64,000 nt of DNA from an uncultured delta proteobacterium (GCA_963712115.1 CAVQGX010000043.1:1-64000); one strand, 5' to 3'. Shown: positions 21,310 through 42,820, counted from the first letter of the stretch. A program made the numbers and translations. Notes: generated by a model not told the origin, from the letters alone.

Positions 21310-22566
21310 ATGAAGAGTTTTTCATTCATTCATACCGCTGATTTGCACCTGGATAGCCCTTTCACTGGACTGCGTCAGGTGGATGGCACTGTTGCCTCTC
21401 TGATCAAAGATGCCACCTTTAGGGCATTTGATAACGTGGTGGATTTAGCCCTTCGCCACAAAGTGGATTTTCTCCTCGTGGCCGGGGACGTATACGATGG
21501 TTCTGATCGGAGTTTGCGTGCTCAGCTTAAGTTTGCCGACGGGTTGGAAAAACTTGCTCGGGCGGGAGTTCGTTCTTTTGTTTGCCATGGCAATCACGAT
21601 CCTCTGGACGGCTGGTCCGCCGCCCTTCGTTGGCCGGAGGGGGTCCACATTTTCGGCCCGGAGCTGGAGTCTATTCCTTTGGTTCTCGACGGTGAAAATG
21701 TTGTGGTTGTTCATGGTATCAGTTACCCCAAATCGCAGATAGACGAAGATTTCGGCAAGGGTTTTCACCGCCAGGGGCCATATCCCTTTCAGATCGGCCT
21801 GTTTCACTGCAGCTTGGGAAGCGATCCAGCCCATGAGACCTACGCCCCCCGCACAATTAATGAACTGGTGTCCGCAGACCTGGATTATTGGGCTTTGGGT
21901 CATGTTCACACATACCGGCTGCTGAAAGACGGCCACCCCTTTATTGCATATCCGGGAAACACTCAGGGACTCCATATTCGTGAGCCCGGCCCTCGCGGCT
22001 GCCTTGTAGTGCAGGTGGATGGGCAAGGAACAGTCAATGCCAGATTCGAGCCGACAGACGCTGTGCGCTGGTTTTCTAAAAATATTCAGATCAATGATCT
22101 TGAGACAGAACCAGATCTCATCGAAGCACTGGAACGAACCTGTGATGAGATTCGCCATGAAGCTCAGGGACGGCCGGCCATTGCCAGAATCACCATTATT
22201 GGTAGGGGCGTGTTGCATTCGGTTTTACGGAGGCCGCAAGTGGTGGGTGACCTGATGGAGCGTTTGCGTGAGACAGGACTTGAATCAGCGCCGCCGCTTT
22301 GGATCGAGCGGATCCAGGTTCAAACGAATACCCCTATTGATTTAGATTCTAGGAGAAATTCTGCTGATTTTCTTGGTGAGGTTCTACGGCTTATTGAAAA
22401 TTCTCGCCGGAATCCGACGGGGCTACAGGAAGTGATCAGCGAGCTTTACCATGATCGGCGGGTGCGAAGATTTTTGGAGATCCCTGCAGAAGAAGAGGTT
22501 GTTGAAATCCTCGGTGAAGTTGAAAGCATGTGTTTGGATGAGCTCGTGGCGGAGGAGACCGAGTGA
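21310..22566 (+). CDS. yhaO: DNA repair exonuclease, Mre11/SbcD-like YhaO family
   Basis: HTADLHLDSPF, AGDVYD, GNHD, DYWALGHVH, YPGNTQG. Confidence 0.9.
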   Translation: MKSFSFIHTADLHLDSPFTGLRQVDGTVASLIKDATFRAFDNVVDLALRHKVDFLLVAGDVYDGSDRSLRAQLKFADGLEKLARAGVRSFVCHGNHDPLDGWSAALRWPEGVHIFGPELESIPLVLDGENVVVVHGISYPKSQIDEDFGKGFHRQGPYPFQIGLFHCSLGSDPAHETYAPRTINELVSADLDYWALGHVHTYRLLKDGHPFIAYPGNTQGLHIREPGPRGCLVVQVDGQGTVNARFEPTDAVRWFSKNIQINDLETEPDLIEALERTCDEIRHEAQGRPAIARITIIGRGVLHSVLRRPQVVGDLMERLRETGLESAPPLWIERIQVQTNTPIDLDSRRNSADFLGEVLRLIENSRRNPTGLQEVISELYHDRRVRRFLEIPAEEEVVEILGEVESMCLDELVAEETE

Positions 22567-29686: not shown

Positions 29687-30148
29687 ATGTTTTCCGCTCG
29701 CGAAATCATTGATATGGCTATAAAGATCGAAAGAAATGGAGAGAATTACTATCGCCAAGCAATTGCAAAGGTTACAGATGCGTCGCTTCAATCTCTTTTC
29801 CTTTTTCTGGCAGATGAGGAATACGAACATGCGAGAAAATTTGAGGCTTTTAAGCAGAGAATAAAGGATTCAGATGAAGATCGGAAGCTGGCTGAGATAA
29901 GCGGGACAATGTTACAGAGCGTGGTAGGTAACCAAAGATTTTCTCTTGATGATATGGATCTTGCCAAACTGGACTCAACAGAGAAGCTGATTGGAATTGC
30001 CATTGAATTCGAAAAAGATAGCATTCTCTTTTACGAGATGCTTCAGTCATTCGTCGAGGATCCTGAGACTTTGGGGCAACTGACTGAAATCATTGCAGAG
30101 GAAAATCGCCATATTGAAATGCTAAATGACTACAAGAGACATCACTGA
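29687..30148 (+). CDS. rubrerythrin/ferritin-like protein
   Basis: IERNG..YY, LADEEYEH, FEKDSILFY, EENRH. Confidence 0.88.
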   Translation: MFSAREIIDMAIKIERNGENYYRQAIAKVTDASLQSLFLFLADEEYEHARKFEAFKQRIKDSDEDRKLAEISGTMLQSVVGNQRFSLDDMDLAKLDSTEKLIGIAIEFEKDSILFYEMLQSFVEDPETLGQLTEIIAEENRHIEMLNDYKRHH

Positions 30149-30262
30149 TCCAGCAAGATTAGTGGTAGTCAACCTGAGAAAAAAAATTACATGATTGAAG
30201 GAGCCTCTACTGTCAGTTTGGTAGGGGCTTTTTTCTGTGAAAAGGTTTCTGTAATATTCTAC

Positions 30263-30339
30263 TTGACAACCGTTAACTCTAATGTTAGCATACGCTAACG
30301 ATTGTGTTAGCAAAAGAATATGCTAACGTTACTGTTAAC
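30263..30339 (+). promoter_or_regulatory. sigma70 promoter overlapped by GTTAGC/GCTAAC/GTTAAC operator-like array
   Basis: TTGACA(30263)-N17-TAGCAT; six related hexamers between 30272 and 30339. Confidence 0.65.
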
Positions 30340-30364
30340 ATTGCATAAAATAAGGTGTCTAGAC

Positions 30365-30907
30365 ATGGCTAGTAAGACTTTAGGATTCAGGCTTCCTGAA
30401 GAAACTTGGAAGAAGTTGGAGGCAGAGGCCCAAAGTAAAGGTATGTCCATGACAGATCTGGCACGCCAAAAAGTAATGCTTGCCACGGATTTTGAGGGCC
30501 CTGTCCAAGCATTAGTAGACCATTACAGTTCTGTGCTCAACATTTCCAGGCACGAAGTGGTTGAGGCTATCTTGACAGACTATGTAGCCATGCAACAGGC
30601 TCACTCAGATGTGTGGGGACCTGGAAAGATGATGCTAGAAGAGTTTGCTTTTACTGAGCAGGGAGTAATGCGGGGACAGCACCTATTCGAGTTAAGAAAA
30701 GCTGTCCATGCTCAGGAATTCAAGAGAGAGAAAGTAAAGATGTTGCTGAAAGAGGAAAAGATGATAGGGCGCGACAGAATGAGCAAAGAGGATAGGGAAT
30801 GGCTAAACGCTAACCTCCACCTTGTTCATGTTCCTCAGGACAAAACGTCGCCTAAAAAATCTGTTTCCCAATGGATGTCCAAGCTGAAAAGGCAGGGTAC
30901 GGAGTAA
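30365..30907 (+). CDS. ribbon-helix-helix (CopG-like) domain protein
   Basis: MASKTLGFRLPEETWKKLEAEAQSKGMSMTDLAR fits the RHH pattern; ATG 30365 with AAGGTG RBS. Confidence 0.7.
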   Translation: MASKTLGFRLPEETWKKLEAEAQSKGMSMTDLARQKVMLATDFEGPVQALVDHYSSVLNISRHEVVEAILTDYVAMQQAHSDVWGPGKMMLEEFAFTEQGVMRGQHLFELRKAVHAQEFKREKVKMLLKEEKMIGRDRMSKEDREWLNANLHLVHVPQDKTSPKKSVSQWMSKLKRQGTE

Positions 30908-39972: not shown

Positions 39973-40713
39973 TTATCTTTTGCTTCTTTTGAGGCGCCGC
40001 TCGCTGCTTCTCTGGCGCTTACGCTCTTTATCCTTTTTCCTCCTCTCTCTTCTCATTGGATCAGGGTCCCTGGCGGGGTCAAGCAAAAAAGAACCAATCA
40101 TTTCCGTTACATCCACTTTGCGAGGCTTAGGGGCTTTCGGTCGTGAGACCTTAGTGGGCTTGGGAGATTCGCGGAGAGGCGGGCCACTCAGGAAGGGGGG
40201 AGGGAGAGTTCTTACCAAATAGAGGAATTCGCCACAAAGAGAAAAGGCGTGGCCTTTATCGTGGGCCTGAGCCGCATGTATGGTCAAAAGTATCGGTTTG
40301 GGGTCACGACGTCTACCAATACGCAAGGCTATTTCCTCTGTTGTGGCCAAGGGCACATAGGGACGGCCTGCCGGCCTGAGCCCATGCTTGAGGATCACGG
40401 GGTAAGCCTTTCTTCTTGCGGCGTAAAAGAGCAATCGAGGCGGGACAGTGGTTGAACTTATCTGCTCCCTCGGTTGTTTGGGTTTTATATAATTTTCCTC
40501 TAGGGTGAAGGCTGACTCAAATTGGGAGTAAGCCAATTCTTGCAGATGGCTCAAACGGATGTGCTTCAAGCCTTCTTCCTCATGAAGGGCCCACAGGAGC
40601 TCTTTGATAGGGAGGGAGCCATCATTGTCCAAAAATAGCCCGAATTCATCAGGTCGGTAGAGGAGGATGTACTCGATGATTTTTCCTAGTTCCTGAAGCT
40701 GGTATTTCCTCAA
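39973..40713 (-). CDS. RNA 2'-phosphotransferase (KptA/Tpt1)-like protein with divergent motifs
   Basis: RPDEFGLFLDNDG, PPRLLFY, ILKHGLRP, IGRRR..KPILLTI.A..A. Confidence 0.75.
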   Translation of the reverse strand: MRKYQLQELGKIIEYILLYRPDEFGLFLDNDGSLPIKELLWALHEEEGLKHIRLSHLQELAYSQFESAFTLEENYIKPKQPREQISSTTVPPRLLFYAARRKAYPVILKHGLRPAGRPYVPLATTEEIALRIGRRRDPKPILLTIHAAQAHDKGHAFSLCGEFLYLVRTLPPPFLSGPPLRESPKPTKVSRPKAPKPRKVDVTEMIGSFLLDPARDPDPMRRERRKKDKERKRQRSSERRLKRSKR

Positions 40714-40772
40714 TGTTTGGTCCCAGAGTTCTGTGCAAGCAAATTGTTGGTCAATTTATCTACCTTTTATTC

Positions 40773-40801
40773 TTGACACAATCCCGCCTATTCTCTATGG
40801 T
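40773..40801 (+). promoter_or_regulatory. sigma70 promoter of the leader-liv-paaK-ior operon
   Basis: TTGACA-N17-TATGGT. Confidence 0.7.
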
Positions 40802-40843
40802 ATAGCATCATTCATCCGAAAGGCAAGGAGTCGGGAGTACTTC

Positions 40844-40927
40844 ATGGCCTTCTCCGCGAGACAGACCGTCCTCCAGAGATATTATTACTTTTTTTATTAT
40901 TTTAGTGGGGAGACGTCTGTCCACTAG
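40844..40927 (+). CDS. Tyr/Phe-rich attenuator leader peptide, 27 aa (MAFSARQTVLQRYYYFFYYFSGETSVH)
   Basis: GGGAG RBS 6 nt before ATG; eight consecutive Tyr/Phe codons at 40880-40903; overlapping alternative hairpins. Confidence 0.85.
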   Translation: MAFSARQTVLQRYYYFFYYFSGETSVH

Positions 40928-41023
40928 CCCTGTTCAACCTATAGAATCGAGGCCGGGGGCAGACTCAACTGCCTGCGGCTTTTTTGTCTGCAAAGAGGCC
41001 GCCACATGAAAGCGGCTTTTTTT
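40860..41023 (+). promoter_or_regulatory. transcription attenuator with two terminators
   Basis: Pairings 1:2 (40860-74/40907-21), 2:3 (40915-29/40951-64), 3:4 terminator (40951-85), 4:5 (40975-86/40991-41002), 5:6 terminator (40992-41023). Confidence 0.8.
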
Positions 41024-41193
41024 GTTTGATTCTGGCCTCGAAAGAGTTTTTTGTGGAGCTTAAGCCTGGACCATCTAAGGTGCGAATTTTTTGATATTGA
41101 CAAAATCTAAGAAACACGGGAAAGGAGGTGACACCCCATCCACATTCGGTGTAAGAGATTATGATGCCATATGACCTAGAGGAGGGAAAATCA

Positions 41194-42354
41194 ATGAAGA
41201 TAAAGGGAAGATCGATATGGATAGCGCTGGCGTTAACCATCTCACTTGTTTTGGTATTTTCGTGCGCTAAAGAGAAAGAGCCTTATAAAGTGGGCGCCGT
41301 TTTCTCAGCCACTGGCCGTGCCTCGTTCCTGGGTGAACCCGAAAAAAAGACTGTCGAGATGATCGCCGAGGCAATAAACAAGGTTGGTGGTATCAATGGC
41401 CATCGACTGGAGGTCATACTCTATGATGACGAAAGTGACGAAACCAAAAGCGTCCTTGCGGTTAAACGGCTAATTAAGAAAGACAATGTCCCCGTGATCA
41501 TCGGACCCAGCCTCAGTGGTAACACTATGGCGGTGATCAAAGTTGCGAATGATGAGCAGATCCCCTTGGTTTCCTGTGCGGCCAGCAACAAGATTGTGAC
41601 TCCGGTGGCAGAGCGAAAGTGGGTCTTCAAGGTACCGCAGTCGGATAGCCATGCGGTTGAAAAAATTTATGATTATCTGCTGAAAAATGGCATGACTAAG
41701 ATTGCCATCATGAGCGTTTCCACTGGGTTCGGTGCCAGCGGTCGCGAAGAACTGCTGCGACTAGCTCCTGAAGTTGGCATAGAGATACTGGCGGACGAAC
41801 GCTATGGCCCTAAGGATACTGATATTACCGCTCAACTTACTCGCATCCGCGGCACCGGAGCACAGGCAATTGTCAACTGGTCTGTGGGACCCACCCAGGT
41901 TCTGGCAGTAAAAAACTGGAAAGATCTGGGAATGACATCCATTCCGTTCTTTCAGAGTCACGGCTTTGGGAGTCACAAAAACATCGAGCTAGCGGCAGGT
42001 GCCGCCGAAGGCGTATTTTGTCCTCTGGGCAAGGTCAATATTCCTCTACTTGTTGCTGATGACGATCCACAAAAGAAGGTAATAATGCTTTACAACGAAG
42101 CCTATGAGCAAAAGTACAATGAACCCATATCGTCCTTTGGCGGGCATGCCTGGGATTCGCTGAACCTAGTCATCGATGCCATGAGGAGTGTGGGACCCGA
42201 TTCAGCTAAAATTAGGGACTACATCGAGAACCGACAAAAATTCATCGGTCAGCACGGCGTGTTCAATTTCTCTCCCACCGATCACAATGGCCTTACCAAG
42301 GAGGCCTTTGTAATGGTAGTGGTGAAGGAAAACACTTGGGCCTTGGCTCCTTAG
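41194..42354 (+). CDS. livK: ABC transporter substrate-binding lipoprotein (LivK superfamily)
   Basis: Lipobox VFSC, TGRASFLGEPEK, GGING, YDDESD, QSHG, GGHAWD; GAGGAGG RBS. Confidence 0.9.
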   Translation: MKIKGRSIWIALALTISLVLVFSCAKEKEPYKVGAVFSATGRASFLGEPEKKTVEMIAEAINKVGGINGHRLEVILYDDESDETKSVLAVKRLIKKDNVPVIIGPSLSGNTMAVIKVANDEQIPLVSCAASNKIVTPVAERKWVFKVPQSDSHAVEKIYDYLLKNGMTKIAIMSVSTGFGASGREELLRLAPEVGIEILADERYGPKDTDITAQLTRIRGTGAQAIVNWSVGPTQVLAVKNWKDLGMTSIPFFQSHGFGSHKNIELAAGAAEGVFCPLGKVNIPLLVADDDPQKKVIMLYNEAYEQKYNEPISSFGGHAWDSLNLVIDAMRSVGPDSAKIRDYIENRQKFIGQHGVFNFSPTDHNGLTKEAFVMVVVKENTWALAP

Positions 42355-42380
42355 AGTTCAATAAGAATGCGATGGCGATG

Positions 42381-42416
42381 GAAGCCTCTCCAGTCCTTTG
42401 GTCAGGAGAGGCTTTC
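42381..42416 (+). terminator. hairpin after the SBP gene (partial terminator or mRNA stabiliser)
   Basis: gaagcctctcc ... ggagaggctttc. Confidence 0.5.
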
Positions 42417-42430
42417 TGTTGAAGATTGCT

Positions 42431-42788
42431 TAGCCCGGATGTTTCATGAATCCGCCTAAGGCGGACCACGGATATGGTCGTCCTTCTCTCCGAGCTGTAG
42501 GCTCTACGAGCCCGAGGCCGTGCGTCCTCGGGTGTCGGCCCCTGCGACGTACCATTCAGGTACGCCTCGGCTTCGATCTTGGATTTGGGATTTCGGATCT
42601 CGGATTTTTGAGTACAATTGGTGATATAGAACTTAACAGTTCAGATCTCACCATTTGCTCTCTGGTTCTCGCGAACTCTTCAGCAAATTTTAAATCCGCA
42701 TTCCGCAATCCGCATTCCGCAATCGTCGACCCGGTGGCACGTCCATCTTCGTGGTCTCGTGACACCAATTCATGAAACATCCGGGCTA
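42431..42788. mobile_element. MITE copy 3, reverse orientation, with a nested ~150-bp heptamer-flanked insert
   Basis: tagcccggatgtttcatgaat ... attcatgaaacatccgggcta; TA at both ends. Confidence 0.85.
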
Positions 42789-42820
42789 GAACTGGACAAA
42801 AGCTTCAAGTTGTTGTTGCT

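Follow-up and report, generated by a model that had tools for sequence, protein, structure and literature searches.

A Tyr/Phe leader attenuator with two tandem terminators that may be coupled by a six-segment RNA relay

Attenuators are the standard textbook example of how RNA folding can report on translation, and the known designs have, to our knowledge, one terminator. In a 64,000-nucleotide stretch of DNA from an uncultured delta proteobacterium (GCA_963712115.1, CAVQGX010000043.1:1-64000; hereafter the window), two terminator hairpins follow one another directly within a single 480-nt intergenic gap, and the 3′ arm of the first (T1) is complementary to the 5′ arm of the second (T2). This arrangement raises the question of whether one signal, the position of a ribosome on a leader peptide, could switch both terminators. 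We addressed this by computing the segments of the leader, their folding energies, the order in which the helices form and their conservation among relatives. The reading that we favour, as probable but far from certain, is that a relay of alternative helices, responsive to charged tRNA-Tyr and tRNA-Phe, couples two intrinsic terminators and so controls an operon for the uptake and salvage of aromatic amino acids.

A predicted attenuator reading Tyr and Phe codons

The gap contains a promoter, predicted to start transcription at about position 40808, and a Shine–Dalgarno-led open reading frame with clustered Tyr and Phe codons (Table 1). The −35 box and the spacing of the promoter are kept in homologous leaders, which carry runs of the kind YYYYYYY, YYYFFYYY or YYFYYY at the same place as YYYFFYYF in the window. 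Such runs of amino-acid codons point to tRNA sensing. The leader stop codon, TAG at 40925-40927, lies within segment 2 at its 3′ edge, and an intrinsic terminator, T1, stands between the leader reading frame and the first structural gene.

Folding calculations gave the antiterminator 2:3 (40915-40935 with 40944-40964, −23.6 kcal/mol) as a helix incompatible with T1 that is itself excluded when 1:2 forms or a ribosome occupies the stop codon. The leader without a ribosome folds into 1:2 and T1. Placing a ribosome footprint over the last Phe codon shifts the minimum-energy fold to 2:3, and T1 comes back once the ribosome is moved to the stop codon within segment 2. Modelled in this way, the element is a classical ribosome-mediated (leader-peptide) attenuator that reads Tyr and Phe, and its core is an ordinary trp/phe-type attenuator. 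A search of 40600-41300 against Rfam with permissive filters returned no family at its gathering threshold and no leader family (best match 20.9 bits).

Table 1 Features of the leader, its neighbourhood and related leaders of the same genome
Feature	Location	Strand	Description
Tpt1/KptA-like gene	39973-40713	−	upstream, divergent
Promoter, sigma-70-type	40773-40801	+	TTGACA, 17-nt spacer, TATGGT; scored 10/12
Leader peptide ORF	40844-40927	+	MAFSARQTVLQRYYYFFYYFSGETSVH; 27 codons; GGGAG Shine–Dalgarno 7 nt upstream
Segment 1	40860-40884	+	partner 40895-40921; 1:2 hairpin −22.7 kcal/mol
Regulatory codons YYYFFYYF	40880-40903	+	8 Tyr/Phe codons in a row
Segment 2	40905-40935	+	core GUCUGUCC at 40916-40923; partner segment 1 or segment 3
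T1	40949-40986	+	13-pair stem with one G.G mismatch, loop ACUCAA, then UUUUUUG
Segment 3	40949-40962	+	5′ arm of T1
Segment 4	40969-40986	+	T1 3′ arm and U-tract UUUUUUG; 40975-40986 may pair with segment 5
T2	40991-41023	+	core GGCCGC/GCGGCU, 9-nt loop, A-rich 5′ flank, U7
Segment 5	40991-41002	+	A-rich flank and T2 5′ arm GGCCGC; partner segment 4 (12 bp) or segment 6
Segment 6	41012-41023	+	T2 3′ arm GCGGC and U7
Liv-type periplasmic substrate-binding lipoprotein, first structural gene	41194-42354	+	ATG at 41194; GGAGGG Shine–Dalgarno at 41180
trpE leader (L216, L218)	contig C7, ~30079-30399	−	peptide with WYWWWY; gene TIGR00564, 582.7 bits
Third aromatic leader (L217, L257)	contig C7, ~22148-22232	−	peptide with FFCYYYY; single terminator
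Weak backbone-model match (L253)	contig C26, ~115286-115372	−	WPWWW leader, one terminator
Weak backbone-model match (L249)	contig C7, 8492-8586	−	GGFFFKK peptide, two terminators

A second terminator complementary to the first

The original prediction had placed a second terminator immediately behind T1, and its coordinates and letters all agree with the sequence: gcggcttttttg occupies 40975-40986, caaagaggccgc 40991-41002, cacatgaaa 41003-41011 and gcggcttttttt 41012-41023. The predicted 12-bp complementarity with G-U pairs is also present, as 40975-40986 pairs with 41002-40991 in 12 consecutive pairs, 10 of them Watson-Crick and two G-U, closed by a tetraloop at 40987-40990. RNAfold assigns −16.5 kcal/mol to this 4:5 hairpin, −22.8 kcal/mol to T1 and −14.3 kcal/mol to T2 with its A/U extension. 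The T2 core in the window is weak (6 pairs around a 9-nt loop, −8.7 kcal/mol alone) and so may terminate poorly whatever the upstream fold.

T1 was picked up by two generic terminator scans, and T2 was absent from both. The first scan missed T2 because its 9-nt loop exceeds the 3-8 loop limit; in the second, the 42-nt stretch before the T2 U-tract probably folded as 4:5 instead. Contigs from RNA libraries (four runs) include some that run through T1 and T2 into the beginning of the transporter gene (record 19 of X17, 40917-41318; record 2 of X15; record 12 of X16); their strand, ends and level are not readable, such libraries may contain DNA, and these contigs carry no conclusion on termination.

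The strength of the 4:5 complementarity was compared with chance using 3,239 terminator-like sites from the organism's own 4.9-Mb genome, by computing duplex energies between 3′ arms plus tails and 5′ flanks plus arms. Random pairs averaged −6.25 kcal/mol (sd 3.1) against −20.2 kcal/mol for the observed pair, and 6 of 20,000 (0.03%) were as low. When segment 4 of T1 was held fixed, the observed value was reached with 0.28% of all 3,239 5′ arms; when segment 5 of T2 was held fixed, with 0.53% of all 3′ arms. A tandem-terminator scan of the same genome, which was not exhaustive and missed a pair in the trpE leader, yielded eight candidates (seven distinct) with the window pair on top at −19.0 and the next at −12.9. 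The complementarity is thus unlike that of two unrelated terminators. It reflects T2 having the stem base of T1 (GCCG.../...CGGC), a likeness that makes 4:5 complementarity automatic and that could be an old inheritance from duplication.

Folding of the proposed switch

From segment 2 onwards, the minimum-energy fold combines 2:3 with 4:5 (−42.7 kcal/mol), and the alternative of 3:4 with 5:6 reaches −39.8 kcal/mol. The two global states therefore lie less than 3 kcal/mol apart and are nearly balanced, as a switch requires. When the transcript was lengthened step by step under an imposed 2:3 helix, 4:5 appeared as the RNA reached 41002 and was the minimum from there to 41023; at full length P(4:5) is 0.65 and P(5:6) is 0.33. 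The model accordingly behaves as had been proposed for the state with 2:3 formed, in which the freed segment 4 was expected to sequester segment 5. The converse proposal, that formation of 3:4 lets 5:6 form, was reproduced in folds with 3:4 enforced.

At the T2 decision point, where the U-tract is still held in the RNA-DNA hybrid, 4:5 is worth −17.3 kcal/mol against −7.1 to −11.5 kcal/mol for the T2 core, a range set by how much RNA has emerged. Findpath puts the barrier to leaving 4:5 at 10.3-13.2 kcal/mol. By a crude Arrhenius estimate, which is no simulation, escape would take at least 1 second, and 4:5 would presumably last long enough in vivo.

These states suggest the following course of events. 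When Tyr and Phe are plentiful, or when the leader is not translated, a ribosome would sit at the stop codon in segment 2 or 1:2 would form. Segment 3 would then pair with segment 4, T1 would terminate, and polymerases leaking past T1 would meet T2 in the form of 5:6. With T1 and T2 in series, the off state would be the product of two leaks. Under starvation, the ribosome would stall on YYYFFYYF, 2:3 would form, and segment 4 with its U-tract would be left single-stranded. Free segment 4 would capture segment 5 on emergence, segment 6 would be left without a partner and both terminators would be bypassed. Termination at either site and the response to the amino acids are what we infer from this scheme.

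An elaboration of the relay, to which we give little credence, is that it acts as a two-checkpoint attenuator with kinetic proofreading, in which T2 resamples the ribosome about 40 nt after the first decision. A ribosome that resumed translation would unzip 2:3, segment 3 would retake segment 4 (3:4 −22.8 against 4:5 −17.3 kcal/mol), and the released segment 5 would allow T2 to fire. Were this so, full-length mRNA would be made only under sustained starvation for Tyr/Phe (or Trp).

Conservation among orthologous leaders

Of 17 genomes in the genus, 16 contain the leader DNA; the 17th (93% complete) gives a chance-level match only. The leader is also present in all four other genera of the same family. 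A search with the binding protein recovered the same leader in the Syntrophobacteraceae MAGs L044, L056, L058 and L061. A metagenome pattern scan for segment 2 and the T1 arm matched at least 118 stretches, seven of which passed the filter; among the matches listed, three were real leaders (L110, L148 and L213) and the other filtered ones were chance. T2 is present in 24 of the 26 complete leaders, and L022 and L060 have T1 only.

The 4:5 complementarity is conserved in these relatives. In the 24-row alignment 89.6% of its cells are paired, against 45-63% in a control in which the 3′ partner was slid by 1-3 columns, and in 19 trpE leaders (described below) the proportion is 97.8%. The corresponding values in the 24 rows are 96.8% for 5:6, 95.2% for 3:4 and 83.6% for 2:3. 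Helix 2:3 includes 16 double-change cells, a count reached in 0 of 500 shuffles. The same shuffle control detected no covariation in the 24 leaders for 4:5 (229 of 500 shuffles reached the observed pairing) and none for T1 (3:4), which has no double change at all. Since the undoubted T1 helix also lacks covariation, this data set is unable to separate the helices: the stems in the 24 leaders vary too little. Of the support that the original prediction had sought in homologous leaders, conserved 4:5 pairing was therefore obtained and a covariation signal was not.

We also compared the energies of the competing helices across orthologues. When segment 4 was free and T2 was cut at its U-tract, the stability of 4:5 exceeded that of the T2 core in 22 of the 24 leaders, and segment 5 lay on segment 4 with P>0.5 in 20 of 24. 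When the whole of T2 and its U-tract was allowed, segment 5 preferred segment 6 in 11 of 24.

This last result, together with the shuffle control, bears on the strongest of the alternatives, namely that T2 is an unregulated back-up copy of the T1 stem, which trims expression by a constant factor in both states and carries 4:5 as a by-product. We consider this unlikely. It agrees with the missing 4:5 covariation and with a full-length equilibrium on the side of T2 in those 11 orthologues and in most class-level relatives, and it has to be weighed against the spacing, strength and divergence of T2 across the class, presented in the next section.

Several leaders, including L056, L061, L016 and L010, have Cys codons within or replacing the Tyr run (CCCC, YCCYSYF). 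As UGY and UAY codons lie one base apart, such leaders may be decaying or retuned sensors.

A class-wide family of tandem-terminator leaders

To extend the comparison, we used a covariance model built from segment 2 and T1 only, so that T2 was not favoured. The model matches (E up to 0.01) 101 of 122 genomes of the class, one of sulfate-reducer relatives, and 53 full-length matches were analysed, four of them weak ones from the window's own genome. T2 was identified by hairpin-plus-U-run criteria alone, independently of arm sequence. It is present in 37 of the 53 matches, the remaining 16 having T1 only. Of the six families sampled, five have T2 and one is without any model match. Over all sets, T2 was found in 79 of 96 entries or, as four loci enter twice, at 75 of 92 loci. 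In every one of the 79 entries T2 starts 10-20 nt past the T1 stem, in a search that reached about 90 nt. The two-terminator feature is real, conserved and non-random.

Downstream of T2, a Shine–Dalgarno-preceded reading frame starts at a median of 44 nt (24-79) in 33 of 37 leaders. This probably leaves too little room for a promoter of its own, so the genes are presumably transcribed through T2. In the class-level set the T2 core hairpin averages −17.4 kcal/mol, and the leading U-run, taken over 78 tandem loci, is longer on average for T2 (6.56) than for T1 (4.83). A strong, class-wide terminator standing between an attenuator and its genes must be conditionally bypassed, and because segment 2 is without a complement in segment 5, we infer that 4:5 is the only visible means of bypassing T2. 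An uncoupled back-up fits these data poorly. A constitutive T2 of this strength (U-run 6.6), at that distance before the start codon, would throttle the induced genes, and an uncoupled terminator would have no reason to keep the tight 10-20 nt spacing of the 79 entries.

We then counted pairs position by position in 62 distinct segment 4/5/6 triples from 72 loci. Positions 1-5 of the 4:5 core are each paired in 62 of 62 triples, position 6 in 58, position 7 in 49 and position 8 in 23. Position 8 of the T2 stem, outside the 4:5 overlap, covaries freely (CG 20, AU 14, GC 4, UA 1). All 62 triples have GCCG(U/C)G.../...C(A/G)CGGC as the stem base of both T1 and T2, and T1-only members, which are under no 4:5 constraint, keep the same base. 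Both observations speak for the back-up, since a shared base means that 4:5 needs no separate selection. Against it, the loop, distal stem and spacer of T2 have diverged freely but the part overlapping 4:5 has not.

Position 5 of 4:5 is AU in 40 triples, GC in 13 and GU in nine, and never A.C. Segment 5 has C at this position in the window's clade and in L281, a trpE-type leader of another family (peptide with YYWWWY) whose congeners L282 and L283 keep U. Both C-bearing lineages have G in segment 4 where relatives have A, so that 4:5 stays Watson-Crick. The G weakens T1, turning a U-A pair into U.G or, in the window, into G.G. Two separate lineages thus seem to have changed segment 5 from U to C, each with a matching segment 4 G at the cost of T1. 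This speaks against a back-up copy, although a pair of events is suggestive rather than decisive.

Energetically, 4:5 and the T2 core are nearly equal across the class (−16.9 against −17.4 kcal/mol). P(4:5) exceeds 0.5 in nine of 36 class-level leaders and the equilibrium favours T2 in 27 of 36, so that a relay there would depend solely on kinetic precedence, with 4:5 forming first. Classical antiterminators likewise work by forming first. Taking folding and conservation together, we find the proposal that one ribosome-position signal switches both terminators to be favoured, and hold it as probable within the limits of the models used.

The U-tracts bear on an alternative division of labour, a his-type relay in which T2 is the sole efficient stop and 3:4 acts in many lineages mainly as an anti-antiterminator whose U-tract pairs with the purine-rich flank of segment 5. 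The T1 tail is indeed degraded in some leaders, to UGUUCUAU in L006, to UCUUUUCU in L012, L013 and L148, and to UGUUUUGU or GGUUUUGU in L289 and L302, and the T2 tail is richer in U than the T1 tail at 37 of the 78 tandem loci, poorer at 16 and equal at 25. In the window and its closest relatives, however, T1 is the better terminator (hairpin alone, −19.2 kcal/mol with U6 for T1 against −8.7 kcal/mol with U7 for T2), and the 16 T1-only members of the 53 indicate that 3:4 is able to stop transcription by itself; we regard a his-type division as improbable. Least probable is that the T2 hairpin is not a terminator at all and instead affects RNA stability or processing, binds a protein or forms the 3′ end of an sRNA derived from the leader: attenuator-derived sRNAs such as rnTrpL are known, and Rfam sRNA models match over T1-T2 (ncr1175 at 20.6 bits, gathering threshold 60; Spy779816 at 20.9, threshold 67), but these matches are far below threshold and driven by the hairpin-plus-U-tract shape, and the near-perfect T2 U-tract across the class is the hallmark of an intrinsic terminator.

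Leaders with the same backbone also occur in other settings. In another family, L291, L293, L294, L313 and L314 are Trp-rich (for example WWCWWW) with a single terminator, and lie directly upstream of a putative IorA-like gene (LGNEAIAY motif).

Paralogous leaders of the same genome

A scan of the window's own genome for leader peptides upstream of terminators gave 395 candidates, mostly spurious, and surfaced leaders of trpE and of an ADH-synthase gene (Table 1). Segment 2 and T1 of the trpE leader are visibly related to those of the window, and the leader has the same two-terminator layout with a 12-bp 4:5 helix (−20.4 kcal/mol). That helix is present in 19 of 19 complete relatives, where 223 of 228 cells are paired, and 4:5 is stabler than the T2 core in 17 of the 19. 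The design is thus kept in at least two paralogous leaders, those of the transporter operon and of trpE. The third aromatic leader precedes a gene for 2-amino-3,7-dideoxy-D-threo-hept-6-ulosonate synthase (TIGR01949, 377 bits), an alternative entry to aromatic biosynthesis.

The operon behind the leader

The binding-protein gene is followed by genes for two permeases, two ATPases, a PaaK-like ligase and IorA/IorB, extending to 50765. The IOR alpha subunit scores 790 bits against a cutoff of 650.9, and the PaaK model matches at 493 bits, below its cutoff. A promoter scan called no sigma-70-like promoter between T2 and the binding-protein gene. A separate promoter at the conserved TTGACA box at 41097, past T2, was considered and rejected: the scan called none there, and no −10 element lies 16-18 nt downstream.

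Two further features of this region were seen. At about 41121-41131, within a region (41095-41150) conserved across the genus, a near-perfect Shine–Dalgarno-like stretch, AAAGGAGGUGA, is followed by a small hairpin, with no ATG, GTG or TTG at the usual Shine–Dalgarno distance; in distant relatives a GGAGGUG matching AAAGGAGGUGA stands directly before the start codon. Between the binding-protein gene and the first permease lies a 467-nt gap (42355-42820) with a terminator-like hairpin at ~42384-42412 (−16.6), which may determine how much binding protein is made relative to the membrane components.

Mostly Tyr codons in the leader, together with the predicted induction of expression by starvation, suggest that the operon supplies aromatic amino acids rather than degrades them. 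A supply route through uptake and aryl-acid salvage by reductive carboxylation is suggested. Control of this kind would link a Liv-type transporter, a PaaK-like ligase and an indolepyruvate:ferredoxin oxidoreductase to Tyr/Phe starvation, and would argue for a role of these genes in supplying aromatic amino acids to these anaerobes.

Comparison with known systems

If the relay operates as proposed, two terminators on one ribosome signal would multiply the tightness of the off state at no cost to the on state, and the second terminator could add a later look at the ribosome. Because the layout recurs, many natural variants are at hand, with T1-only relatives as built-in controls.

The leader resembles the four-segment attenuators of the E. 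coli trp, phe and thr operons in its promoter, its codon-cluster reading frame, its 1:2, 2:3 and 3:4 helices and its terminator before the first gene. It differs from them in having a second terminator 10-20 nt on, whose 5′ arm pairs with the 3′ arm of T1, in having mainly Tyr codons, and in standing before genes for an ABC transporter, a PaaK-like ligase and IorAB instead of a classical biosynthetic operon.

The his leader of enteric bacteria has six segments, with A:B, C:D and E:F alternating with B:C and D:E, and only its last hairpin terminates. As there, a six-segment chain with two alternative partners for every inner segment would pass ribosome position through two successive alternative pairings. 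Unlike in the his leader, the middle hairpin 3:4 is here a full terminator with a U-tract (U6), called as such by terminator scans, which places two stops in series. The original prediction had credited the design with tightening the off state beyond the textbook four-segment type. Six segments as such are nothing new, since relays of that length are textbook for the his leader; the novelty lies in a middle hairpin that terminates by itself.

Two adjacent Rho-independent terminators in a leader that encodes a leader peptide are found both here and in the erm(K) attenuator, according to the passage that describes the latter (PMC4335068), so that in both a translation-sensing leader carries two intrinsic terminators. 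The ribosome of erm(K) is stalled by a drug, and sequestration between T1 and T2 arms is not stated in that passage (PMC4335068). The rimP-leader of some Gammaproteobacteria has a second terminator in tandem and a potential antiterminator in a 5′ leader; as presented in the part of the source that covers it, the second terminator lies upstream and has an inverse motif, there is no leader peptide and no relay is described (PMC2965389). The zipper-type attenuator of pLS20 follows a different design, as far as its description in PMC13401043 goes. Among the full texts open to searching, to which subscription journals and the primary erm(K) papers do not belong, no leader-peptide attenuator turned up whose first terminator uses its 3′ arm to sequester the 5′ arm of the following one.

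Fail-safe tandem terminators likewise consist of two hairpin-plus-U-tract units in series. Those stand after a gene and are not made to be bypassed, whereas the pair described here lies in a 5′ leader, between a promoter and its genes, with the upstream gene divergent.
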